Position numbers and translations under genes: made by a program. From Patescibacteria group bacterium (lineage in GTDB: Bacteria > Patescibacteriota > Patescibacteriia > UBA1558 > GWA2-36-10): DNA of 64,000 bases. Every line of letters starts with the position of its first letter. Position 1 is the first letter of the stretch. The stretch lies in the NCBI GenBank assembly GCA_041662585.1, contig JBAZSG010000001.1, forward strand, positions 66,381 through 130,380, read 5' to 3'. Of the stretch, positions 30,482 to 62,936 are shown piece by piece. The notes under the pieces are model-generated. The model was not told the DNA's origin and did no database searches. It worked only from the letters and a program-made list of their open reading frames with translations.

Positions 30482-32581
30482 TTATAACCTATCGTAACTA
30501 TTAATTGATGGATTAATAGTTATCGTAAGCGTTTCTGTATCTGCACCAACAGAATTAAGAGCTGTTATTTCAACAGCATATGTACCAACTACACTGGCTG
30601 TACCGACGATTACGCCAGTTGATGTATCAAATGATAAGCCAGTTGGTAAATTACTTATTCTAAAATTAGTAGGGTTATTGGTAGCTGTAATAGTATATCT
30701 AAAACTACTTCCAACTGTAGCATTGACAGTTAATGGACTAGTTATTTCTGGTGCTGGTCCTCCTATAATTTCATTACATGGGATTTCGGTGATTGGCAAA
30801 GTCAAAAAAGTATCAGCATAGGGAGTACCATTAGTGTCATAATAATATATATTTGGCATATAATCTGTATAAGTTGTTTCTGGCAAACAGAGGGAATGTG
30901 TAATGCCTTGGGATTGTATATTTATTATACGTTCTGGAATTATTGCATGATTTTCATCATCAAAAACTTCTAAAGCAAATGGTGCACCTGGTTGATATTG
31001 TTGAGCAATATTAGAACTAAAATAATCATTAGTGTTCAAGTTTAGACCTCCAAATGGATAACCATAAGGGTTAAAATTAGCTATAAAATATATCTCCGGA
31101 TTGCTAATGCCGTCTGAATCTACTGGAATATTAACACTAGCATCATCAATACTACCGATATCTAGTTTATTAGCCAAAAGTTGATTACATGGTAAAGTGG
31201 TAGCTTTGTTGGTTAATAAACTATCAAAGTAGGGAGTACCATTGGTGTCATAATAATATAAAATATAATCACCCTCATTAATTAATGTCTCTGGTAAACA
31301 AAGAGTATGGATAGTTCCTTCAGATTGTATGTTTATTATACGCTCTGGAACCAGTGTTCCTACGTCACTACCAAAACTCAAAGCAAGTGGCGCACCTGGT
31401 TGATATTGTTGACCAATATTAGAACTAAAATAATTATTGCTACTCAAATTTAATTGTCCGAATGGATAACCATAAGGGGTAAAATTAGTCATAAAATATA
31501 TCTCGGGATCATTGATGCCGTCTGAATAAACTGGAATATTAACACTAGCATCATCAATACTACCAATATCTAGTTTATTAGCCAAAAGTTGATTACATGG
31601 TAAAGTGGTAGCTTTGTTGGTTAATAAACTATCAAAGTAGGGAGTACCATTGGTGTCATAATAATATAAAATATAATCACCCTCATTAATTAATGTCTCT
31701 GGTAAACAAAGAGTATGGATAGTTCCTTCAGATTGTATGTTTATTATACGCTCTGGAACCAGTGTTCCTACGTCACTACCAAAACTCAAAGCAAGTGGCG
31801 CACCTGGTTGATATTGTTGACCAATATTAGAACTAAAATAATTATTGCTACTCAAATTTAATTGTCCGAATGGATAACCATAAGGGGTAAAATTAGTCAT
31901 AAAATATATCTCGGGATCATTGATGCCGTCTGAATAAACTGGAATATTAACACTAGCATCATCAATACTACCAATATCTAGTTTATTAGCCAAAAGTTGA
32001 TTACATGGTAAAGTGGTAGCTTTGTTGGTTAATAAACTATCAAAGTATGGAGTACCATTGGTGTCATAATAGTATTTATTTGGAAAATAATCAGTATAGG
32101 TTGTCTCTGGTAAACAAAGAGTATGGATAGTTCCTTGAGATTGTACATTTATTATACGACTTGGGATTACTTCTCCTCCATTATCTGCCCAAAGTTGTAG
32201 AGCTAATGGAACGGTTGAAGTGGAATATTGAATATCCATTGGATCATATCCTCCACTTAAACTTAAATGGCCCAAAGATAAATTATCAGCTATAAACTCT
32301 ACACTAGGGTTGCTAATGCCGTCTGAATAAACTGGAATATTTACTGCAGCATCTTCAATACTTTTTAATACTAATGGACCTGTTTTTAAAATAGTTTCTC
32401 CAATTATGACAGGACCATTGACTGGACCACTAATTCTACTAACGGAAAAAGCCATAGCCATAAAATTAAGTCCTAACATAAATGAAGATACTATTAGTAA
32501 AGAAAGGGCTATCTGTTGCCCAGTAATTACCTTACTAACTATAGAAGTTTTATTTTGCACTTGCGTTTTTACTTGTTTCAT
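30482..32581 (-). CDS. Repeat-rich cell-surface protein with a C-terminal Ig-like (He_PIG-type) domain
   Basis: N-terminal signal-anchor, four ~136-aa repeats (CNQLLANKLDIGSIDDASVNIPVYSDGI...), C-terminal TGLSFDTSTGVIVGTA motif. Confidence 0.7.
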   Translation of the reverse strand: MKQVKTQVQNKTSIVSKVITGQQIALSLLIVSSFMLGLNFMAMAFSVSRISGPVNGPVIIGETILKTGPLVLKSIEDAAVNIPVYSDGISNPSVEFIADNLSLGHLSLSGGYDPMDIQYSTSTVPLALQLWADNGGEVIPSRIINVQSQGTIHTLCLPETTYTDYFPNKYYYDTNGTPYFDSLLTNKATTLPCNQLLANKLDIGSIDDASVNIPVYSDGINDPEIYFMTNFTPYGYPFGQLNLSSNNYFSSNIGQQYQPGAPLALSFGSDVGTLVPERIINIQSEGTIHTLCLPETLINEGDYILYYYDTNGTPYFDSLLTNKATTLPCNQLLANKLDIGSIDDASVNIPVYSDGINDPEIYFMTNFTPYGYPFGQLNLSSNNYFSSNIGQQYQPGAPLALSFGSDVGTLVPERIINIQSEGTIHTLCLPETLINEGDYILYYYDTNGTPYFDSLLTNKATTLPCNQLLANKLDIGSIDDASVNIPVDSDGISNPEIYFIANFNPYGYPFGGLNLNTNDYFSSNIAQQYQPGAPFALEVFDDENHAIIPERIINIQSQGITHSLCLPETTYTDYMPNIYYYDTNGTPYADTFLTLPITEIPCNEIIGGPAPEITSPLTVNATVGSSFRYTITATNNPTNFRISNLPTGLSFDTSTGVIVGTASVVGTYAVEITALNSVGADTETLTITINPSINSYDRL
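31141..32046. repeat. Tandem direct repeat, 408-bp unit, about 2.2 near-identical copies inside the surface-protein gene
   Basis: The string catcatcaatactacc(g/a)atatctagtttattagcc recurs at 31141, 31549 and 31957 with a nearly identical intervening sequence. Confidence 0.85.
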
Positions 32582-32664: not shown

Positions 32665-32693
32665 TTGACAGTCAAAAATAATCAGCGTATAAT
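32665..32693 (+). promoter_or_regulatory. Consensus sigma-70 promoter (TTGACA-17-TATAAT)
   Basis: ttgaca gtcaaaaataatcagcg tataat. The -35 sits inside the palindrome tttgacagtcaaa. Confidence 0.6.
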
Positions 32694-32703
32694 ATCTATT
32701 AAT

Positions 32704-32775
32704 ATGCTGAAAAGAATTATTCAACATAAAAAACACCACAAAGATTACTACTTAAAATTTTTAAAAAATATATAA
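32704..32775 (+). other. Candidate leader peptide ORF (MLKRIIQHKKHHKDYYLKFLKNI, 23 aa)
   Basis: The ATG lies about 4 nt from the predicted TSS. The TAA stop directly abuts the terminator stem. Confidence 0.3.
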
Positions 32776-32803
32776 GTCGTTCCGAAAGGAACGATTTTTT
32801 TAT
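32776..32803 (+). terminator. Intrinsic terminator/attenuator in the leader of the AsnRS-core gene
   Basis: gtcgttcc-gaaa-ggaacgat followed by ttttttta, 25 nt upstream of the ATG at 32828. Confidence 0.55.
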
Positions 32804-32827
32804 AAACTAATAATTAAATAAAAACCT

Positions 32828-33832
32828 ATGGACAAAGCAAAAACAGCCCGCCTTGAGGGCTTCGTACTCAAGGAAGCTGAAGATTTTTTTCGCAAGCAGG
32901 GTTTTATCCCTTTATTTCCACCCAAAATTGTCAGAGCCTCTGGCGCTTGTGAAAATATAAATACTCTTTTTGAAGTCAGTGTTGATAAAAATCATAAATG
33001 GTTTGATAGGAATTCTTACCTTTCACAAACTGGTCAGCTCTATCTTGAAGCTATGGTACCAGAACTCAAAAAAGTCTATTGTGTAGGACCATCATTTAGA
33101 GCTGAGCCCAAAATAGACTCCCGACATTTAACAGAATTTACTATGTTGGAAATTGAATTTGCTGGTAACTTTGAAGATCTCTTAGCCTATGAAGAAACAC
33201 TTATTCATCATGTAGCCAAAAAAGTAGTGCAACATCCCAAAGTCAAAGAGGATTTTGGCTTGAGTGACCAAGACATACAACGCTTAAATAAATGTCCAAA
33301 TAAATTCCAGCGCTTTACCTATGATCAGGCCATTACCAAGCTTCAAGAAATTGGTGAAGCTATAAAATGGGGAGATGACATAAATAGTAATAGAGAAAAA
33401 TTGCTTCTAGCTACGGTTGATAATCAACCGTTTTTTATTACCCACTATCCTGACCCGATGTATGAAGAACATAAAAATATTGAAGTAGAAAAATTCTTCA
33501 ATATGCTACCATCAAAAGACAATCCTGGTCGTGTACTCAGTTCTGATCTTATATTACCCTTTGGTGGTGAAGCGGTGGGAGCAGCTGCTCGTGTACATAT
33601 ATTGGATGAATTGGTAAAACGTTTAAAAAATTCCAAAATGTATAAACGCCTACAAGAAAAAGGCGGTGATATCAGTGATTTTGAATGGTATATAAATCAT
33701 ATAGAAAAAAATGGAGCTGTACCGCATGCTGGTTGTGGTTTTGGCATGTCCAGAATACTACAGTATATTAGTGGCAAAACAGACATTACTGAAGCAGTCA
33801 CTTTTCCTTCTAATAAAGGCCTTTTGATATAA
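32828..33832 (+). CDS. AsnRS-like class II catalytic core without an anticodon-binding domain (putative archaeal-type asparagine synthetase A-like paralog)
   Basis: 334 aa. QTGQLYLEA, motif 2 GPSFRAEPKIDSRHLTEFTMLEIE, motif 3 GCGFGMSRIL. No N-terminal OB fold. Confidence 0.65.
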   Translation: MDKAKTARLEGFVLKEAEDFFRKQGFIPLFPPKIVRASGACENINTLFEVSVDKNHKWFDRNSYLSQTGQLYLEAMVPELKKVYCVGPSFRAEPKIDSRHLTEFTMLEIEFAGNFEDLLAYEETLIHHVAKKVVQHPKVKEDFGLSDQDIQRLNKCPNKFQRFTYDQAITKLQEIGEAIKWGDDINSNREKLLLATVDNQPFFITHYPDPMYEEHKNIEVEKFFNMLPSKDNPGRVLSSDLILPFGGEAVGAAARVHILDELVKRLKNSKMYKRLQEKGGDISDFEWYINHIEKNGAVPHAGCGFGMSRILQYISGKTDITEAVTFPSNKGLLI

Positions 33833-33973: not shown

Positions 33974-34192
33974 CTAGCACGAACACGGCACATCACTGAG
34001 TGTCAGGTGCTCGGAAACCTTATTAAGGGTTTCGATATCAATGCCTAGTTGCCCAGCGGCCAAACTAGGGCTCAAGGGATAATCACGGCGACCACACTGA
34101 CAGATAATGAAATACCAGCCATAGATGCTTGATTTTTCCACTCTGGCTTTGGAGTGGCAAACTTGGCACACAATAGTTTTGTTGTTAGACAT
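33974..34192 (-). CDS. Small zinc-ribbon protein (72 aa) in a GC-enriched patch
   Basis: CQVC...CQCG...CSC. Perfect AAGGAGG RBS. Followed on the minus strand by the ccgccaccc/gggtggcgg hairpin plus a T-run. Confidence 0.5.
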   Translation of the reverse strand: MSNNKTIVCQVCHSKARVEKSSIYGWYFIICQCGRRDYPLSPSLAAGQLGIDIETLNKVSEHLTLSDVPCSC

Positions 34193-34423: not shown

Positions 34424-35128
34424 TCAACGATGGGTTTTTAAGTCAACGACTGCTTGCCTGACTCTATGTCCAATCACTTTTCTGACATGACGATCTGACA
34501 TATCTAGGTCAGAAAAATTAATCGGTTTACCGATAGTAATAGTTCCTCTATGACCAGAAGAAATTCCGCGATAGCTGAAACCAACGGCGATTGGCATGAT
34601 GGGCTGAATGCCTTCTAAGAGTATAGGGATTACGAAGTTTGGCTGAGCCAAACGGATAGTCTCAGCTACACCAGGTACACAGGGACCAACCTCCCCTGTC
34701 CTACTACGAGTAGCCTCAAAGAAAAGAACCACATTGCCAGTTTTTAAGGCTCTAACAAATAATCTGATTTGAGCCTTAATAGTATGGTGACCACTTTTTC
34801 TGGCGACAGGTATATTCTTTAAGAGATTGAAAAGGTGTTTCCACACCTTGTGGGTCAAAAAATTCTTTCTGTCTGGTGTATTCCAAGAAATACGTCTAGG
34901 GCAAAACAATATCTCCCACCAACTCAAGGTAGCGATTCCAATTAAAAAGGAATCAATTAGTGTGAGATGATTAGCTACATAAAGTACTCTAGTATCGTGG
35001 GGCAGGTTTTCTCGGCCGATTATCTCAACCTTGTTTCGAACACGGAAAATCCAAATACTCCACAACCATCCAACGATCAAAACTATATGGCTAAGTCTGC
35101 CATAAAACCACTTTTTTATGCTGCTCAT
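34424..35128 (-). CDS. Lysophospholipid (1-acyl-sn-glycerol-3-phosphate) acyltransferase family protein
   Basis: NHLTLIDS (HX4D) and FFEATRSRTGE motifs. Start set at MSSIKKW, which is preceded by an AAAGGAGG RBS. Confidence 0.7.
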   Translation of the reverse strand: MSSIKKWFYGRLSHIVLIVGWLWSIWIFRVRNKVEIIGRENLPHDTRVLYVANHLTLIDSFLIGIATLSWWEILFCPRRISWNTPDRKNFLTHKVWKHLFNLLKNIPVARKSGHHTIKAQIRLFVRALKTGNVVLFFEATRSRTGEVGPCVPGVAETIRLAQPNFVIPILLEGIQPIMPIAVGFSYRGISSGHRGTITIGKPINFSDLDMSDRHVRKVIGHRVRQAVVDLKTHR

Positions 35129-35299
35129 AGCAGACCTCCTTTCATGGTCATTGTATTTAAATAACACTATACTAACTAAATAGACTACTACACAAAAACC
35201 TTCTTGTCAAAATAGCTATTATTTATAAAATTGTAAATTTATAAAAAATATTGTATGCTACAGGCTCTTAAAGCCTATATAAAATATCTATATTAAAAC

Positions 35300-54326: not shown

Positions 54327-55655
54327 ATGAAGGAAGTGTTTGTCACTGATCTAATCAACAACGGATCCCTCAATACCGAGGTCCAGTTGCAAGGTTGGAT
54401 CAAGAATCGCCGACACCACGGAAAACTCGTTTTTCTTGATGTCTGTGATTCCACTGGTATCATCCAGGTTGTCATAAACCGCGAAACAATTGATGAGGAC
54501 AGTTTCAATCTGGCAAAGAAAGCCAACCTCGAAACCTCTGTCAACATCAGGGGCACCCTGATCAACGGCAGTGGCAAGAGCCAACTCGACAGGGAGATCG
54601 TCGTACATGAGTTCAACATCATCGGAGAGGCAGAATCCATCTCGCCTGCTATCCGAGCGGATGATATTGACATCTCTAATCCTGGAAATGCTGATCACCT
54701 ACTGAAAAACCGCCACCTCTACATCCGCAATCCGCAGATCATCGCGGTCATGATTTTCAGGCACAGGATCATGCATTTCATCCGTGAGTGGTTCGTGAAG
54801 AACCGCTACATTGAAATCACAGCTCCGGTCCTGACCATGCTACCGCTCTACTCGGATGGCAGTGTCCTGCCTGTCGACATCAAAGGTGAGAAAGCCTACC
54901 TCACTCAGTGCGTGGGATTTTATTTGGAAGCTTCTGTTCATGCTCTGGAACGCGTCTACAACATGGGACCGTCTTTCAGAGGAGAAGAGAGCAGGAGTCT
55001 CCGACACCTGATGGAATACTGGCACATCAAAGGAGAGGCTGCCTTCGCCGATTTGGAAGATGCTATCCACACCGTGGAAAGCATCTTTAGTGAAACGGTG
55101 GAATTCTGCGAAAGGGAATGCCAAGATATCTTTGCTACCCTGGGCACTGAAATTCACACTGAAGGCAAGCTCATTCCATTCCCTCGCATCAGCTACCGCG
55201 AAGCCGGCGAGATGCTGAAAGCTGCCGGACTGCCTTTCGAGTTTGGTACTAGTCTTAGTACTACCGACGAGGAATTCCTGGCGGCGCAGTTCGACCGACC
55301 ATTCTGGGTTGTCGGCATTCCCCGCAAGATCGAACCATTCCCCTACGTCATTGACCCTGACGATCCTGAAATCACTAGAACAGCCGATCTCATCGCTTCC
55401 CGAGGATTCGGAGAGCTTCTCGGCGTCGCTGAGAAAATTTCCAACCTCGAAAGCCTTGACGAGAGACTCCGTGAAAAAGGCAAAGCTGGAGACGAAAACC
55501 ACGAATGGCTACGGGACATCAGAAAATACGGCTGTGTCCCGCACATTGGTTTTGGCATGGGTGTTGAACGTCTGCTCAGGTGGCTTCTAGACATCAGGCA
55601 CGTTCGTGATACTATGCCATTTCCACGAATCTTCCGTCGTAGAATTTACCCATAA
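54327..55655 (+). CDS. asnS: Asparaginyl-tRNA synthetase-like class IIb aaRS (about 50% GC, foreign composition)
   Basis: N-terminal OB-fold anticodon-binding domain, motif 2 GPSFRGEESRSLRHLMEYWHIKGE, motif 3 GFGMGVERLL. AAGGAG RBS 7 nt upstream. Confidence 0.8.
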   Translation: MKEVFVTDLINNGSLNTEVQLQGWIKNRRHHGKLVFLDVCDSTGIIQVVINRETIDEDSFNLAKKANLETSVNIRGTLINGSGKSQLDREIVVHEFNIIGEAESISPAIRADDIDISNPGNADHLLKNRHLYIRNPQIIAVMIFRHRIMHFIREWFVKNRYIEITAPVLTMLPLYSDGSVLPVDIKGEKAYLTQCVGFYLEASVHALERVYNMGPSFRGEESRSLRHLMEYWHIKGEAAFADLEDAIHTVESIFSETVEFCERECQDIFATLGTEIHTEGKLIPFPRISYREAGEMLKAAGLPFEFGTSLSTTDEEFLAAQFDRPFWVVGIPRKIEPFPYVIDPDDPEITRTADLIASRGFGELLGVAEKISNLESLDERLREKGKAGDENHEWLRDIRKYGCVPHIGFGMGVERLLRWLLDIRHVRDTMPFPRIFRRRIYP

Positions 55656-55676: not shown

Positions 55677-56984
55677 GTGAAAAGAATACTAATCGGCAAT
55701 CTCCAACAGATGCCTAGTGGCCAGATGGTCACCATCTGTGGCTGGTTGCATTCTCTGCGCAAGCAGAAGAATATGATCTTCGCAGTGGTCAGAGACTATA
55801 CTGGTCTTGTCCAGTTGTCCTACTTCCGCGGTGACAACCAGTTGAATATCGAGAAAGCCCTCGAACAGCTTACTGTCGAATCAGCAATCATCGTCACCGG
55901 TGAACTGCTGACCAATGAAGCGGTCAAGCTCGGTGGCAAGGAAATCAAGCCAGAGACAATCAAGATCGTCTCGCTGGCCGAATCTCCCCTGCCGCTTTCG
56001 GACAAATCGCCCTTGGACACTCGTCTGGACTGGCGTTTCCTCGACCTTCGCAAGGAGAAACAACAACTCATTATGCGAGTCCAGACTGTTGCCGAACATG
56101 CCATGCGCCTGTTCTGGCAACAAGAAGGATTCGTCGAGATACACTCTCCCAAACTGATGGGAAGCTCCAGCGAATCCGGCAGTGAACTGTTCCGTCTGCC
56201 CTACTTCGGCGGCGAAGCCTTCTTGGCCCAGTCACCTCAGTTTTTCAAGCAGATGGCTATGGCTGCCGGCCTAGAACGCGTTTTCGAGATTGGTCCGGTG
56301 TTCCGAGCCAACAAGTCCCACACTGTCCGCCATGACACGGAATTTACCAGCGTGGATGTCGAGTTCTCCTGGATCGAGTCCCATCACGAAGTGATGGAGC
56401 TCGAGGAAAGGTGGCTTTGTTTCGTCATTGCCTACATCAAGGACAAACTTGGTGAGCAGATCACCAATCTCTTCGGTGTTGAAGTGGTTGTTCCTCAACT
56501 TCCTTTCCCTAGAGTGACGATGGTCGAAGCTCAGAACATCGTCGCTCAACGAGGTCATATTTGCGAACGCAAAGATGACCTCGACCCCGAAGGCGAAAGG
56601 CAACTCAGCTCCTACATCATGGGGAAGTTCGGACACCAAATGGTGTTCGTAACTGACTACCCCACCGAAGTTAGACCTTTCTATCACATGAGGCCGACAC
56701 ACAACCCCGAACTGACCAACAGCTTCGACCTTCTGTGGAAGGGGCTCGAAGTCACCACTGGGGCTCAGCGAGAACATCGTTACGATGTCCTGCGTCAACA
56801 AGCCGTCGACAAGGGTCTCGAACTGGAACCCATCCGATTCTATCTGGACTTCTTCCGCTACGGCATGCCGCCGCACGGAGGATACGGTTTCGGTCTCACC
56901 CGTATGCTTATGGTACTCCTCGGACTATCCAATGTCCGCGAGGTCACCTACGTATATCGTGGTGTCAACAGACTGACTCCCTAA
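55677..56984 (+). CDS. aspS: Aspartyl-tRNA synthetase, archaeal/eukaryal short type (about 50% GC)
   Basis: OB fold, QSPQFFKQ AspRS signature, GPVFRANKSHTVRHDTEFT, GGYGFGLTRM. Confidence 0.8.
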   Translation: MKRILIGNLQQMPSGQMVTICGWLHSLRKQKNMIFAVVRDYTGLVQLSYFRGDNQLNIEKALEQLTVESAIIVTGELLTNEAVKLGGKEIKPETIKIVSLAESPLPLSDKSPLDTRLDWRFLDLRKEKQQLIMRVQTVAEHAMRLFWQQEGFVEIHSPKLMGSSSESGSELFRLPYFGGEAFLAQSPQFFKQMAMAAGLERVFEIGPVFRANKSHTVRHDTEFTSVDVEFSWIESHHEVMELEERWLCFVIAYIKDKLGEQITNLFGVEVVVPQLPFPRVTMVEAQNIVAQRGHICERKDDLDPEGERQLSSYIMGKFGHQMVFVTDYPTEVRPFYHMRPTHNPELTNSFDLLWKGLEVTTGAQREHRYDVLRQQAVDKGLELEPIRFYLDFFRYGMPPHGGYGFGLTRMLMVLLGLSNVREVTYVYRGVNRLTP

Positions 56985-57050: not shown

Positions 57051-57800
57051 TTATAATTCTGATATAGCGTGAAATTTATTTTCTTTTTTCAACTTATGTT
57101 TAAAGTATTTTCCATCTTTCCAATATATTTTGTATACATTAGCAAATTTCCTAGAACTAATAATTCTAAACATGCCATCAACTATTTCAATTGCGGCACA
57201 ATTTTCTGCAGCTAGAGCAAAACCAGAAATTTTTTTCATCCTTTCTTTTATATCAATTTGTCTATCCTTCTCAAAATCATAATGAGGAGAAAATAAAGCA
57301 TTGACTATACCTAAGCCCGAGACAGTTATATATGGGACTTTTTTATTAGTAAATTTTTTTGCATCACTCTGACCATATTTAAACCAACAAATAGCGCCAG
57401 CACTCAAACCAGAAAGAACTATCCCTTTACTATACGCTTCTATAAGTAGCCTATCTACTCCAAATTTTCGCCAAGTTTTCATCATCTTTAAAGTGTTGCC
57501 TCCTCCTACATATATAACGTCCGCATTGAGAATTTTATTTTTCAATTCTTTTTTTGTATATTTATTTTTTATTAAAAGCAAAGATGAAACTTTAGCTCCT
57601 AATTTTCCCCCAAAATAATTATTAATTACATCTATATACCCTTGAGCGTCTGAACTAGCAGTAGGAATAAAAAGCAAATTTGGACTCTTTTTGCCCGAGA
57701 GCTTGATAACCTCTTTATCTATTGCTAATGTCTCTATTTTATAGCCAGGTCGGCCTATTTCTCCACCACCGATAGCTATTATTTTTTTTGTCTTTTCCAT
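57051..57800 (-). CDS. Peptidase S51 family (dipeptidase E/cyanophycinase-like)
   Basis: IGGG...LFIPTAS...YVGGGNT...SGLSAGA. Host-like AT-rich composition. Confidence 0.7.
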   Translation of the reverse strand: MEKTKKIIAIGGGEIGRPGYKIETLAIDKEVIKLSGKKSPNLLFIPTASSDAQGYIDVINNYFGGKLGAKVSSLLLIKNKYTKKELKNKILNADVIYVGGGNTLKMMKTWRKFGVDRLLIEAYSKGIVLSGLSAGAICWFKYGQSDAKKFTNKKVPYITVSGLGIVNALFSPHYDFEKDRQIDIKERMKKISGFALAAENCAAIEIVDGMFRIISSRKFANVYKIYWKDGKYFKHKLKKENKFHAISEL

Positions 57801-57947
57801 AAAAAAATTATAGCAAAAAATCGCTATTATTCAAATATGTAACTATAAAGCCTAAAACTTTACAAAATGTAACAATCATGATAATTATAGTAATAATTAA
57901 AAAAATTTTAATGTACCTTGAAACCTTCATCATTTAGGAGGGATACC

Positions 57948-58970
57948 ATGTCTGAAGCCAGAGACAACATAGAGCACGGCCTCACTATCACCAAAAGAGA
58001 GCTGGCTAAACGTGATGAAATTCTCGCCTACCTGCCCGAAATCATCATAGACGCGCATGCTCACGCCGGACTTGAAGAGCAGGTCGGTCAGATTGACCCC
58101 AGAACCATGCAGCACATGATGACGACATTCCCCTTCTTCAGTCTAGAAGACTCGGCCCGAATGAACAGCCTATTCTTTACGGGAAAACTGGTGCATACCT
58201 TGCGCTTTGCCATCCCGTGGAGAGGCATAGATCATCGGTCTGCTAACCAGTACCTGCTGAAAAACAGTCCACCCTCAGATAGGGTTGCCCTTTGTGGCAT
58301 CCCTGATGACCCGGACTATACAATAAACCAATTGTGCAGAAAAAAATACTGCGCACTAAAAATGTATGTCAGATACTTTGAACCCCCGGCAACCAGAATA
58401 TACGAATTTTTTCTGCCTGAGATACTGGAAGAAGCGCAAGTTCTGGACATTCCAATAATACTGCATCTGCCGGCTATGATCACCAAGTGTATTGATGATT
58501 TGGATAGGTGCTTATCGGACTTTCCCAAGCTACGGGTAGTGCTAGCTCACCTGGGCCTACCTCATCTACCCATACCAGGATTAGCAGAAGCTTACGATCA
58601 ATTCGCGAGCTACCCTCAAGTGTCCATGGATACGGCAATGATCCCTTCCAAAGAAGTGGTCGCTCTGGCTCTAAAAGCTTTCGGCCACGATCGAATAATG
58701 TACGGTTCCGATCAACCTCTGAACATACTAAGGCAAGTCGTCTATCACCACCCTGAAAAGGGAGAAAGAATAGTGACGCATCGTCGCTACCACTGGAGTG
58801 ATTCACTAGAACACGAACAATACGGCCACCTGGCTGTTGGTGCCGTGCACTCGCATTGGCAATGCTTAGAATCTCTGCTGGAAGGAATCAAACAAATATT
58901 CCCCAGCTCCGAAGCTGAAGCGCGTCGCAATATATTCTGCGCTAATGCGCGGAAAATGTTCGACTTCTAA
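57948..58970 (+). CDS. Amidohydrolase-2 (TIM-barrel metal-dependent hydrolase) family protein (about 50% GC)
   Basis: IIDAHAHAG, VLAHLG, MYGSDQP motifs. AGGAGG RBS. Start taken at MSEARD. Confidence 0.7.
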   Translation: MSEARDNIEHGLTITKRELAKRDEILAYLPEIIIDAHAHAGLEEQVGQIDPRTMQHMMTTFPFFSLEDSARMNSLFFTGKLVHTLRFAIPWRGIDHRSANQYLLKNSPPSDRVALCGIPDDPDYTINQLCRKKYCALKMYVRYFEPPATRIYEFFLPEILEEAQVLDIPIILHLPAMITKCIDDLDRCLSDFPKLRVVLAHLGLPHLPIPGLAEAYDQFASYPQVSMDTAMIPSKEVVALALKAFGHDRIMYGSDQPLNILRQVVYHHPEKGERIVTHRRYHWSDSLEHEQYGHLAVGAVHSHWQCLESLLEGIKQIFPSSEAEARRNIFCANARKMFDF

Positions 58971-59908: not shown

Positions 59909-60997
59909 CTAACTTATCTTTTTAACCACACCGTTATCAGCATCTACTTCTATTTTATCGCCATTCTTAAAAATTTTAGTAGCCTCTTTTGTATCAATTA
60001 TACAAGGAATTTTTAACTCACGAGATACTATAGCAGCATGAGAAAGCATGCCACCTTGATCTGCTACAATAGCTGAAGCTTTTTTACACAATGGTAGCCA
60101 ATCAGGACTGGTAGACTCGGCAATTAAAATATCACCTTTCTTCATTTGTTTATCCATCAATTTTACTTTTTTTATATCATAAAACATAGGAGCAATTATG
60201 GCTCTGCCAACTACTTTGCCCTTAAAAGCTGTTCTGCCTTTTAATATTGTTGTTTTGGAAGCCAAGGTGAAGTTTTTATAAAGTTCTAAAGACTGTTTAT
60301 AAGAAAAAGTTTTGATACTATTATTTTGATTTATGGCGCTATAACATTTTTTTCTTTGTTCAATTAAATTTTTAGGAATTTTTTTACCATCAAAAATATT
60401 TAATATTTCATTTGAATATAGGAATCTTCCATCATAATCATATTTCAAAAAATATTTCAATAAATTTTCAAAAACACCCCCTTTAAAAAAATAGTTGTTT
60501 AGTAATTCTCTGCCGTGAAATTTAAACTTGGCTGCTTGAAGTAGATTATTTTTAACTGTTTTAGCTTTATTTTTATCTAAAGAATCTAAATCTATTTCTT
60601 GATAAGGAAATTCGACAAAACCATAATAATACCAAAACTGGGCTAAAAAATTTCTAATTTTTATAAATTCTCTCCTGTTTAATATTTCGGGTGTTTTGTT
60701 ATATTTAGATATTATTTCTTTATTTGCTTTATTAACATAATCTTTAAAATCTTTTAAATATCTTTTAAATCTTGCTTCATTTCCATACAAACACAACCCT
60801 TCTTTAGAAAAATACTTCAAATTATTTTTACTAATAAAAGTATAATAATCTTTATCTTTATGTATAACTAACATCCCCTTGCCCAAAGAACTTGTTAATA
60901 AAAACTCACTATGAAGACAGGTAATAATACCCTTAGTAACAAAAAATCTCACAAAATTATTTGGTGTTATCTTGATTAATTCTATATCCTTTTTCAT
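59909..60997 (-). CDS. Protein with a C-terminal PEP-utilising-enzyme mobile (phosphohistidine swivel) domain and an uncharacterised N-domain
   Basis: C-terminal GGMLSHAAIVSRELKIPCIID...VDADNGVVKKIS. Confidence 0.65.
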   Translation of the reverse strand: MKKDIELIKITPNNFVRFFVTKGIITCLHSEFLLTSSLGKGMLVIHKDKDYYTFISKNNLKYFSKEGLCLYGNEARFKRYLKDFKDYVNKANKEIISKYNKTPEILNRREFIKIRNFLAQFWYYYGFVEFPYQEIDLDSLDKNKAKTVKNNLLQAAKFKFHGRELLNNYFFKGGVFENLLKYFLKYDYDGRFLYSNEILNIFDGKKIPKNLIEQRKKCYSAINQNNSIKTFSYKQSLELYKNFTLASKTTILKGRTAFKGKVVGRAIIAPMFYDIKKVKLMDKQMKKGDILIAESTSPDWLPLCKKASAIVADQGGMLSHAAIVSRELKIPCIIDTKEATKIFKNGDKIEVDADNGVVKKIS

Positions 60998-61487: not shown

Positions 61488-62936
61488 CTAATTTAACTTT
61501 TTAACTACACCATTATCAGCGTCTACTTCTACTTTATCACCATCTTTTAATACTTGTGTGGCTATTTTGGTGCCAATAATACAAGGTATGCCTAATTCAC
61601 GTGATACTATAGCAGCGTGACAAGTAATTCCTCCTTCATCAGTTATAATAGCAGCTGCTTTTTTCATAGCTGGAGCCATCTCTGGACGAGTCATAGAAGA
61701 AACTAATATATCGCCCTCATCCATATTGATCATATCGTGAATTTTTAAAATAATTTTAACAACACCCTGAGCTTTCCCTTTAGAAGCAACCACTCCTTTT
61801 AACTCTTCTGTTACGCCTTTTTTATTTTGATAAAAATCCAAAAGTTCTTTAACAGTTTTACCAGATATAATTTCATAAGAATTTGGAGTCTGAATACAAA
61901 CACACATTTCTTTTCTGCCTTCTAACTCTTCTTTATCAATTTTTTTAGCTAAAACTTTACGAAATTCTGAATAAACTGAGTAGGTTAATAAATCAAAAGG
62001 GACTTTTGTGCGTTTTTCAACCTCGCGTAAAAACTTAAATTGATAATAATTAGCCATTAAAACATACTTTTTTCTAGTGTCCTGAATACCAAAAAATTCA
62101 TCCATCATATCTATCAGCGAAAGATTCCACTTAGATAGTTTTAATTCTTTAATTAACCCTTCTCTTTCCTTTAGAATGCTTTCTCTAGTTTTAGATGGTG
62201 TGTGATCTATGAGTTTTTTAAAATCCTGATAAATTATTTTGGAAAAATCATCAACTGTTAGATAATTTCCTTTAGCATAATTATTTTGAATATAGAAATA
62301 CTTAGCTGAATGCTGTTCTAATTTATCTAGTGGTATTTTTTTGCCGTCTTTTAAGTATTGTAGTAATTTTTCTCTATCCACCTGTTCTTCTTCAATGAAA
62401 GAAATGTGTTTGGTGGTTATTAATTTAGGAAATATCTCATTAAATCTGTTTCCTAGTATTTTTTCAAACTCAGGAATAATATAACGGTCAGCGTGCATAG
62501 ATACCGCATCACCCAAAGTCATAAAATAAGTAAATTGTTCTAAATATGCCTCGTAAAAACTATCATATAATAATGCTAGTTCTTCATCATTTAATTTTTC
62601 TAAATTTATCTTATCTACTTTATCAATAACTGATTCAAAATCATTTATTTTCTTATACCAATCGTTTTGTATTTTTTTTAAATAATTTTTATCTTTTTTT
62701 AAATTATCTAAAAATAAATTACGTACCCTATCTAAGTCATTATCATTCCAATACCAGTGAACATAATCATTAGTAACAAAAAAGAGAGTTATGGTACTAG
62801 AATCACCATATATCTTTTTCATAGGAAAACCAGTTTGTCCTACTGGAAAGAAAGTGTGTAATACACCGTGAAAGCCTTTATATGTCCAGGTAGATTGGTC
62901 TATCTTATACTTACTTATAATTTCTTCTACTTTCAT
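61488..62936 (-). CDS. Paralogous protein with a C-terminal PEP-utilising-enzyme mobile domain (482 aa)
   Basis: C-terminal GGITCHAAIVSRELGIPCIIG...VDADNGVVKKLN. Preceded by an extended -10 ttggtataat 9 nt from the ATG. Confidence 0.65.
   Translation of the reverse strand: MKVEEIISKYKIDQSTWTYKGFHGVLHTFFPVGQTGFPMKKIYGDSSTITLFFVTNDYVHWYWNDNDLDRVRNLFLDNLKKDKNYLKKIQNDWYKKINDFESVIDKVDKINLEKLNDEELALLYDSFYEAYLEQFTYFMTLGDAVSMHADRYIIPEFEKILGNRFNEIFPKLITTKHISFIEEEQVDREKLLQYLKDGKKIPLDKLEQHSAKYFYIQNNYAKGNYLTVDDFSKIIYQDFKKLIDHTPSKTRESILKEREGLIKELKLSKWNLSLIDMMDEFFGIQDTRKKYVLMANYYQFKFLREVEKRTKVPFDLLTYSVYSEFRKVLAKKIDKEELEGRKEMCVCIQTPNSYEIISGKTVKELLDFYQNKKGVTEELKGVVASKGKAQGVVKIILKIHDMINMDEGDILVSSMTRPEMAPAMKKAAAIITDEGGITCHAAIVSRELGIPCIIGTKIATQVLKDGDKVEVDADNGVVKKLN

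Follow-up and report, generated by a model that had tools for sequence, protein, structure and literature searches.

What does the catalytic core of an aminoacyl-tRNA synthetase (aaRS) do once it stands without an anticodon-binding domain? A 64-kb stretch of Patescibacteria DNA, analyzed here as a whole and called the window, raises this question through a gene at 32828..33832 on the plus strand. From an ATG start, the gene encodes a protein of 334 residues that profiles, homologues, and a structure model support as a stand-alone class II catalytic core derived from asparaginyl-tRNA synthetase (AsnRS). We refer to this protein, and to the clade in which it falls, as T. We propose, with a confidence that stops slightly short of even, that T is a tRNA-independent adenylate-forming ligase that feeds dihydroorotate formation in the synthesis of uridine monophosphate (UMP).

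Is the protein truly a bare core? Its sole Pfam domain is PF00152 (E 1.4e-48; residues 6-329, profile positions 21-307 of 308), and the score of 166 bits against a gathering threshold of 25 places it in the class II aaRS core, subclass IIb. The Pfam search gave no match to PF01336, the OB-fold anticodon-binding domain. The top NCBIfam match is the AsnRS model NF003037 (E 5.7e-65), aligned over model positions 134-445 of 451; since the match sets in at position 134, the protein starts exactly where the catalytic domain of AsnRS starts. A preliminary description, made from the letters of the window, had already called the protein an AsnRS-type catalytic core standing alone, and these results bear it out. 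The motif strings on which that description relied are likewise present in the translation: QTGQLYLEA at residues 67-75, FRAEPKIDSRHLTEFTMLEIE at 90-110, and motif 3, GCGFGMSRI, at 302-310.

Two explanations of the truncation, a missed upstream exon or start and a split enzyme, can be set aside. The 246 bp that separate T from the divergent gene on its 5' side are AT-rich, carry a promoter, a 23-codon open reading frame (ORF), and a terminator, and contain no reading frame for an OB-fold; the homologues begin at the same place. An enzyme split over two genes was sought with maximum-sensitivity phmmer searches of three anticodon domains against all six-frame ORFs of the window, which returned only the two full-length synthetases discussed below. 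In addition, the gene has a native-like composition, with a G+C content at third codon positions (GC3) of 0.27 against approximately 0.2 for its neighbors and the rest of the window. At E<=1e-10 the window protein has 689 homologous clusters; the best 120 of these are all 320-380 residues long, share 56-87% identity with it, and belong to Patescibacteria, among them Komeili-, Uhr-, Nealson-, Vogel-, and Spechtbacteria. The best homologues carry the NCBI name "amino acid--tRNA ligase-related protein." Given so many homologues, and such uniform length among the best 120, we regard the truncation as an old, selected state and not as an artefact of annotation.

From which synthetase does T descend? 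Against PDB sequences, the window protein scores 158 bits with the AsnRS of Pyrococcus horikoshii (1X54), approximately 100 with archaeal aspartyl-tRNA synthetase (AspRS), and 33 with the archaeal asparagine synthetase AS-AR (3P8T), the last over 58 residues only. An AF2 model built from a 60-sequence alignment (pLDDT 89, pTM 0.89) finds 1X54 as its best Foldseek match in the PDB (TMq 0.80, 33% identity); the 50 best matches are AsnRS or AspRS catalytic domains throughout, and neither AS-AR nor AsnA is among them. A scan of 1.84 billion cluster representatives yielded 3988 relatives, many of them 300-370 residues long at 33-53% identity and interleaved with full-length archaeal-type AsnRS. In a neighbor-joining tree of 150 catalytic domains, which has no bootstrap support values and includes no AS-AR sequences, approximately 70 stand-alone representatives form one clade, the T clade, beside full-length AsnRS. 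This clade takes in the Patescibacteria family together with one Aenigmarchaeota and one Bathyarchaeota protein, and the window protein is nested within it. Both the order of the scores (AsnRS 158, AspRS 100, AS-AR 33 bits) and the position in the tree thus place the protein with AsnRS, not with AspRS. Reviews describe AS-A and AS-AR as derived from AspRS (PMC9437257); T, being derived from AsnRS, is therefore an independent lineage.

This parentage bears directly on the function that the preliminary description had assigned, archaeal-type asparagine synthetase A. The profile comparison it had recommended, against AsnA, AsnRS, and amino acid:carrier-protein ligases, does not uphold the assignment. 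All four archaeal AsnA models are failed by a wide margin (PRK06462.1-1, 111 of 368 bits; -3, 72 of 309; -4, 57 of 389; -5, 37 of 322), and the model for bacterial AsnA (aspartate-ammonia ligase) is absent among the 20 NCBIfam matches at E<=1. The models for EpmA/GenX (34 bits vs. 287) and for amino acid:[carrier protein] ligase (14 bits vs. 357) are failed as well. AsnRS is the best match, although under both AsnRS cut-offs (NF003037, 220 vs. 414; TIGR00457, 210 vs. 342.6). Ten other representatives of the T clade behave alike: each scores best on AsnRS, and none of the 10 reaches an AsnA cut-off. The caveat in the same description, that some other aminoacyl-adenylate chemistry might be at work, was apt.

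As judged from its sequences, the T clade is large and uncharacterized, and its stand-alone AsnRS-derived cores occur in Patescibacteria and in some archaea; our literature search found no description of it. Stand-alone class II cores as such are a known kind, and T is new as an AsnRS-derived variant with a signature of its own and an unprecedented pathway association. Its nearest relative by sequence, profile, and fold is the archaeal-type AsnRS catalytic domain (1X54), with which it shares motifs 1 to 3, the Mg and ATP ligands, and the residues of the asparagine pocket. T differs from AsnRS in having neither the OB-fold domain nor the hinge, in scoring under both cut-offs, and in a set of clade-specific substitutions and insertions; moreover, AsnRS is a housekeeping synthetase, whereas T occurs in pyrimidine operons and fusions. 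AS-AR ("AsnRS2" of Pyrococcus abyssi, 3P8T; PRK06462) is, like T, a stand-alone class IIb core without an anticodon-binding domain, but derives from AspRS (PMC9437257) and not from AsnRS. By analogy, the shared lack of that domain makes tRNA-independent, amide-forming chemistry likely in T. Bacterial AsnA shares the class II fold and the order of adenylation followed by attack of a nitrogen nucleophile, which in T is proposed, yet no profile match between the two is detectable. AsnA keeps the Lys and Asp of the AspRS type. EpmA/GenX, the LysRS-derived ligase that attaches beta-lysine to EF-P, is another class IIb core stripped of its anticodon domain and turned to a new acceptor (PMC2821294). 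The parent synthetases differ, and T shows no linkage to an efp- or epmB-like gene in 53 species-level loci.

Which parts of the synthetase machinery has T kept? We compared alignment columns across 120 members of the family, 69 further T proteins, 38 AsnRS of full length, and 38 full-length enzymes from Patescibacteria. T retains P32 of motif 1; E42 of the flipping loop; Q67, Q70, L73, and E74 of QTGQLYLE; R91, E93, R99, and H100 of motif 2; E108 and E110; the metal ligands D240 and E248; R255; and R309 of motif 3. P32, R91, and R309 are invariant in 60 family members, and E42, R91, E93, Q67, Q70, E74, E108, and R255 are invariant in the T comparison. The pocket is of the AsnRS asparagine type: E108 in the H/M-x-E strand, R255 in the GxxxR strand, and L73 are invariant or almost so, and no Lys follows QSxQLY. 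From the structure of Thermus thermophilus AsnRS, we take E108 and R255 to be the AsnRS-specific pair that stands where AspRS relies on Asp and Lys. The flipping-loop Glu of human AsnRS touches the asparagine moiety; the adenylate is touched by Arg and Glu of motif 2 (PMC10831071). Since the ATP, Mg, and pocket residues are all kept, T appears able to convert an asparagine-like ligand into an adenylate. Active-site residues do not differ between the fused and the solitary subclades of T.

The changes that set T apart from AsnRS lie elsewhere. EGG has become ENx (G43N); the motif 2 loop S-x-T has become x-x-D (T97D, with D97 in 88-99%); KAFYM has become KFFNM (A223F and Y225N, 91-100%); the C-terminal FPR no longer has its arginine; and there is an insertion at 268-276 (NSKMFKRL). 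The resulting signature, C41-E42-N43, D97, K222-F-F-N225-M, and the S269/M271 insertion, is complete in the window protein and present at 82-100% in 69 other T representatives. In yeast AspRS, Ser and Thr of the motif 2 loop contact the discriminator base of the tRNA. The identity of tRNA-Asn rests on the anticodon and G73 (PMC9976931). T has lost the anticodon as well as the discriminator read-out, which argues against charging of tRNA. The preliminary description had implied that T works without tRNA, and the missing anticodon domain makes this very probable.

These losses weigh most on the idea that T takes part in forming Asn-tRNA-Asn after all, either as a minimal AsnRS that reads the acceptor stem only or by joining the divergent full-length AsnRS-like enzyme, or GatCAB, as a partner or subunit. 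Apart from T, no protein in the window has an orthodox asparagine pocket, gatB lies just upstream in 7 of 53 loci, and the neighbors, partly as judged by eye, are often translation genes (TrpRS, ThrRS, MiaA, TsaD). Such genes are, however, dense in these small genomes anyway. The domain that would read the anticodon, the main identity element of tRNA-Asn (PMC9976931), is missing, and the motif 2 loop Ser/Thr and the FPR arginine are gone. T is also several-fold rarer than the full-length Patescibacteria enzyme (689 vs. >4030 clusters), and its clade includes metabolic fusions. We consider a role in Asn-tRNA formation very unlikely.

The metabolic fusions lead to the evidence that carries our proposal. 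Members of the T clade are fused to an MGS-like domain, to dihydroorotate dehydrogenase (DHO_dh), and to a phosphoribosyltransferase (PRTase; P0183, P0268, and P0165), and the P0183 gene is followed by PyrE-like and PyrF genes. The T+MGS family counts at least 672 clusters from Patescibacteria, including Levyibacteriota. It includes T+MGS+DHO_dh triple fusions, and the architecture T+MGS+DHO_dh(+PRTase) is also seen. For the MGS-like domain, the nearest match is the allosteric domain of carbamoyl-phosphate synthase (CPS; 2YVQ, human CPS1). A metagenome scan with the T+MGS subclade gave 79 loci with 24 T+MGS genes. Of the 19 T+MGS loci with enough flank, 11 have PyrD on the same strand directly downstream; PyrD, PyrE, or PyrF lies within 4 kb downstream in 9 of 13; and some pyr gene accompanies T+MGS in 13 of 17. 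No PyrB was found within 10 kb of T+MGS in the loci examined. Two further loci (L129 and L142) hold a stand-alone T of another subclade, followed by PyrF and PyrE. The window protein's own family adds a few cases at 53-58% identity. One locus (L053) runs pyrR-like, pyrB, pyrC, T, with a spacing of 35 bp ahead of T; two others (L048 and L057) have pyrC followed by T; and an Uhrbacteria locus (L035) has pyrD, an unassigned gene, pyrF, pyrE-like, and T. The contigs of the first three are labeled Zixiibacteriota in their records. The linkage of the T clade to PyrD/E/F, to PyrR-PyrB-PyrC, and to the CPS regulatory domain is thus repeated, independent, and physical, and de novo pyrimidine synthesis is the only recurrent functional context of the clade.

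How might T enter this pathway? Descended from the catalytic domain of an archaeal-type AsnRS, T would bind ATP-Mg and an asparagine-like ligand, one with a carboxamide or ureido group, and turn it into an acyl-adenylate. A nitrogen nucleophile, instead of A76 of the tRNA, would then attack the acyl-adenylate in a C-N bond formation of the AsnA type. From the genomic wiring of the clade, this step would stand where de novo UMP synthesis begins, and there T may hand dihydroorotate or its immediate precursor to PyrD, and may thereby replace or bypass CarAB and PyrB, possibly also PyrC. The T+MGS operons hold nothing else that could supply PyrD; the amidohydrolase encoded upstream of T+MGS looks cytosine-deaminase-like.

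A stricter version, unlikely in our estimate, would make the T clade an AsnRS-derived, ATP-dependent dihydroorotate synthase that, with PyrD, PyrE, and PyrF, completes a four-enzyme route to UMP without CarAB, PyrB, and PyrC. The candidate reaction would be L-asparagine + CO2/bicarbonate + ATP -> dihydroorotate + AMP + pyrophosphate, in which the N-carboxy group would be adenylated and the side-chain amide would close the ring. This reaction is attractive because N-carboxy-asparagine is isomeric with carbamoyl-aspartate; carbamate adenylation has a precedent in TsaC. ATP-driven cyclization of an aspartate-derived ureide, or a CPS-like role, are candidate alternatives. In terms of control, T+MGS proteins would use the recycled allosteric domain of CPS, and the gene in the window would use a leader-peptide attenuator.

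CarAB, the regulated entry to pyrimidine synthesis, offers a comparison for such a role. T carries the CPS-type MGS-like domain in more than 600 clusters, and its position after pyrB and pyrC in L053 is that which carAB or pyrAA/AB occupy in many pyr operons. The two differ in fold and chemistry: CarAB combines ATP-grasp and phosphorylation, while T has the class II aaRS fold and would work by adenylation. Nothing in the analysis points to carbamoyl phosphate as the product of T.

Several observations nearby touch this part of metabolism. The amidohydrolase upstream of T+MGS was considered as a possible dihydroorotase and rejected: by eye its motifs are cytosine-deaminase-like (HxH, HVHVDE, GTDN), and Pfam gives Amidohydro_1 only. 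An Amidohydro_1 protein of 324-346 residues with such motifs recurs upstream of T or T+MGS (L072, L081, L088, L098, L105, L128), which suggests that salvage and de novo genes are co-located around the T/PyrD/E/F clusters. The CPS-type MGS-like domain that T carries elsewhere is joined at L098:5348-6988 (+) to argininosuccinate synthase in a fusion; in L081, T+MGS has ArgG and an ArgH-like lyase on its flanks; and in L068, adenylosuccinate synthetase comes after T. It seems that the regulatory domain of a missing CPS has been redistributed to aspartate-using ligases.

What, then, holds our confidence below even? The window protein is tied to pyrimidine synthesis through its homologues only: the 64-kb window, where the T gene is solitary, contains no pyr gene, and none lies within 10 kb in 44 of the 48 informative loci of its own family, in which pyr linkage amounts to 4-5 of 48. 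The operon types also conflict for any single reaction, with L053 holding PyrB and PyrC before T and the T+MGS operons lacking both. The PyrB and PyrC of L053 are apparently active (the PyrC motif is DMHTHLR), and hence no candidate reaction fits both types neatly. Class II chemistry activates the alpha-carboxylate, which is free in dihydroorotate, so that a changed binding mode would be needed. Furthermore, the AsnRS-type pocket of T could be simply ancestral, Patescibacteria are generally described as poor in de novo nucleotide synthesis, and the tree that delimits the clade is the one without support values. All these points count against placing T at the entry of UMP synthesis. An inactive PyrC' in L053, considered as the thing that T replaces, was ruled out by the DMHTHLR and DHAPH motifs there.

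The neighborhood of the family offers no steady partner. Clustering of 890 neighbor proteins from 53 species-level loci revealed no conserved gene beside T; the commonest neighbors are gatB (in 7 loci, upstream of T) and a MiaA-like gene (in 8, convergent with it). Within 10 kb of T, these 53 loci contain neither AsnRS nor AspRS, and none of them has a conserved small carrier-protein gene beside T. As an observation on gene order, gatB stands just upstream of T on the same strand in L001, L004, L020, L022-L025, L029, and L064 (Komeilibacteria-like genomes and one Uhrbacteria); in L001 and L004 it comes after a cluster of dCMP deaminase, dUTPase, DHFR, ThyA, and Tmk.

The function first suggested for this protein, ammonia-dependent asparagine synthesis, has to be weighed against this background. 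Here T would adenylate the beta-carboxyl of aspartate for attack by NH3 and supply asparagine to the co-resident AsnRS-like enzyme; its activity would be a second, AsnRS-derived invention of that of AsnA and AS-AR. Truncated class IIb cores with this activity have precedent (PMC2821294; PMC9437257), and T has all adenylation residues while lacking the tRNA-reading domain. A full-length AsnRS-like gene lies in the same window, asnB and gatCAB were not found among the window ORFs scanned, and E108 and R255 might serve to hold a flipped aspartate by its alpha-NH3+ and alpha-COO-. Set against this are the failed archaeal AsnA models (best 111 vs. 368 bits) and the unmatched bacterial AsnA, and the fact that the known AsnA enzymes are AspRS-derived with a Lys/Asp pocket, where T has the Leu/Glu pocket of AsnRS; the residues are said to play these roles in the T. 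thermophilus AsnRS work of 1998 by Berthet-Colominas. None of 128 T loci adjoins an AsnRS or any asparagine-related gene, and the recurrent pyrimidine context is left unexplained. The pocket of the co-resident "AsnRS" is moreover remodeled (E->K, R->K), which makes its need for free asparagine uncertain. We judge asparagine synthesis by T unlikely, though still a live rival to the pyrimidine reading.

How is the T gene controlled in the window? A sigma-70-type promoter, TTGACA-17-TATAAT, lies at 32665..32693 (+) and matches the consensus at 12 of 12 positions; a TTGAC..TAxxAT promoter occurs at the equivalent place in homologous loci (L014-L019, L021, and L061). It is followed at 32704..32775 (+) by a leader ORF of 23 codons (MLKRIIQHKKHHKDYYLKFLKNI), the stop codon of which abuts the 5' arm of an intrinsic-terminator-like hairpin. 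This element, at 32774..32804 (+), comprises a 10-bp stem with a GAAA loop and a T-run, folds at -12.8 kcal/mol, and is located 24-31 nt (approximately 25 nt) ahead of the T start codon.

The arrangement is widespread: a hairpin with a T-run occurs within 220 nt upstream of T in 42 of 46 homologous loci, where the stem sequences vary and the architecture is retained. Of these 42 loci, 29 have an ORF with an ATG start whose end falls at the hairpin or close to it, in a range from 9 nt ahead of the hairpin to 12 nt beyond the point where the T-run starts. Three unrelated families of leader peptides can be told apart, all of them ending in or near the terminator stem: MLKxIIQHKK..LKFFQK, which comprises in-frame counterparts in close relatives, and ..KWK..FSNFIN and MAIRxK..GDGPQRA..NFDFxIPR, found in more distant loci. 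Together, the promoter, leader ORF, and terminator probably form a translation-coupled attenuator of the T gene, which we liken to the pyrBI and pyrE attenuators of Escherichia coli. Two established types of control were also considered. A T-box or known riboswitch gave no credible Rfam match at the gathering score or at E<=10, the six sub-threshold matches being to unrelated families. A leader rich in Asn codons, as in classical Asn-tRNA attenuation, was not supported either: by eye, Asn occurs in the last six codons of approximately 12 of 21 leaders, not clearly above the expectation for AT-rich DNA.

The leader ORF also enters one further explanation, in which T activates the alpha-carboxylate of asparagine and passes it to an acceptor other than tRNA-Asn, or makes a signaling nucleotide such as Ap4A. 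The acceptor might be a protein, as EF-P is for EpmA; it might equally be a small molecule, a carrier protein, or the peptide that the leader encodes. Such a role would sit well with the retained canonical AsnRS pocket, with the very high conservation of the protein (56-87% identity across classes of Patescibacteria), with the precedents of EpmA and Glu-Q-RS (PMC2821294), and with a conserved small ORF immediately upstream of T. A terminator lies between that ORF and T, however, and the peptides belong to three unrelated families; no acceptor or carrier gene is conserved beside T in the 53 species-level loci, the EpmA and carrier-protein ligase scores (34/287 and 14/357 bits) are negligible, and the pyr fusions are not explained. 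We therefore hold another acceptor, or a nucleotide product, to be quite improbable.

Entry into pyrimidine synthesis remains the reading that we favor, and it would have consequences beyond this locus. Stand-alone synthetase cores are a classic case of the recruitment of translation enzymes into metabolism, and few have a known function (AsnA/AS-AR, EpmA, HisZ, Glu-Q-RS). T adds an independent, AsnRS-derived lineage of hundreds of clusters, labeled in databases as asparaginyl-tRNA synthetase or "amino acid--tRNA ligase-related protein." If the pyr link is functional, T would close what looks like a gap where UMP synthesis begins in many Patescibacteria, estimates of their dependence on hosts for nucleotides would change, and one of the most conserved pathways in biology would gain a new reaction. 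If T is instead an asparagine synthetase, the activity would have a second, convergent origin from a different synthetase. Either way, the present annotation inflates AsnRS counts in metabolic reconstructions.

The window also holds two full-length synthetase genes. An AsnRS-like gene at 54327-55655 (+) scores 314 bits against an AsnRS cut-off of 414 and stays under both AsnRS cut-offs; it is followed at 55677-56984 by an orthodox archaeal-type AspRS gene (479 bits, cut-off 353). Their GC3 values of 0.57 and 0.63 stand out from the approximately 0.2 of the rest of the window, which agrees with the foreign composition reported in the preliminary description. The suggestion made from it, that the supply of asparagine may have been rewired, does not follow: the AsnRS-like protein is one of a very large family of Patescibacteria proteins, with more than 4030 clusters, to which PGAP gives the name AsnRS, and two further Patescibacteria contigs have the pair as well, in one with Peptidase_S51 and Amidohydro_2 after it and in the other with Amidohydro_2 ahead of it. 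A pair of the usual Patescibacteria type, conserved in its arrangement, gives no ground for inferring a rewired supply. Foreign descent of the GC-rich pair is ruled out by its best homologues, which are from Patescibacteria, and by the conserved synteny.

Two further features of this region merit description. The first is the pocket of the full-length Patescibacteria "AsnRS" (the 54327-55655 protein and P0272-P0390), which is remodeled: the AsnRS Glu and Arg are both replaced by Lys (each in 100% of 38), the second Gln of QSxQ by Gly, the flipping-loop Glu by Asp, and KAFYM by EPFPY, while motif 2, motif 3, the Mg ligands, and the ATP-binding residues are kept. As far as such substitutions can tell, the amino-acid specificity of these enzymes may be other than asparagine. 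The second is the pattern of composition: the AsnRS-like, AspRS, and Amidohydro_2 (57918-58970) genes have a GC3 of 0.51-0.63, against approximately 0.2 elsewhere, and the Peptidase_S51 gene between them (57051-57800) has a native-like 0.22. The same order, AsnRS-like, AspRS, Peptidase_S51, and Amidohydro_2, is repeated in a 75%-identical relative. The pattern looks like patchwise replacement rather than an inserted island.

Lastly, the surroundings of T contain several unusual genes. On the minus strand upstream, the gene at 30482-32581 contains a 408-bp unit repeated 2.9 times (30963-32158, 93% identity); it encodes a predicted surface protein of 699 residues with a C-terminal He_PIG Ig-like domain and two identical repeats of 136 residues. 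Directly downstream of T and convergent with it, 33974-34192 (-) encodes a cysteine-rich ORF of 72 residues (CxxC...CxC, with a CSC end) that has an atypical GC3 of 0.52 and no Pfam match; the adjoining acyltransferase gene (34424-35167) is also GC-shifted, at 0.38. Farther away, the neighboring genes at 59909-60997 (-) and 61488-62936 (-) encode proteins that each show only a C-terminal PEP-utilizing-enzyme mobile domain, preceded by N-terminal parts without a Pfam match.

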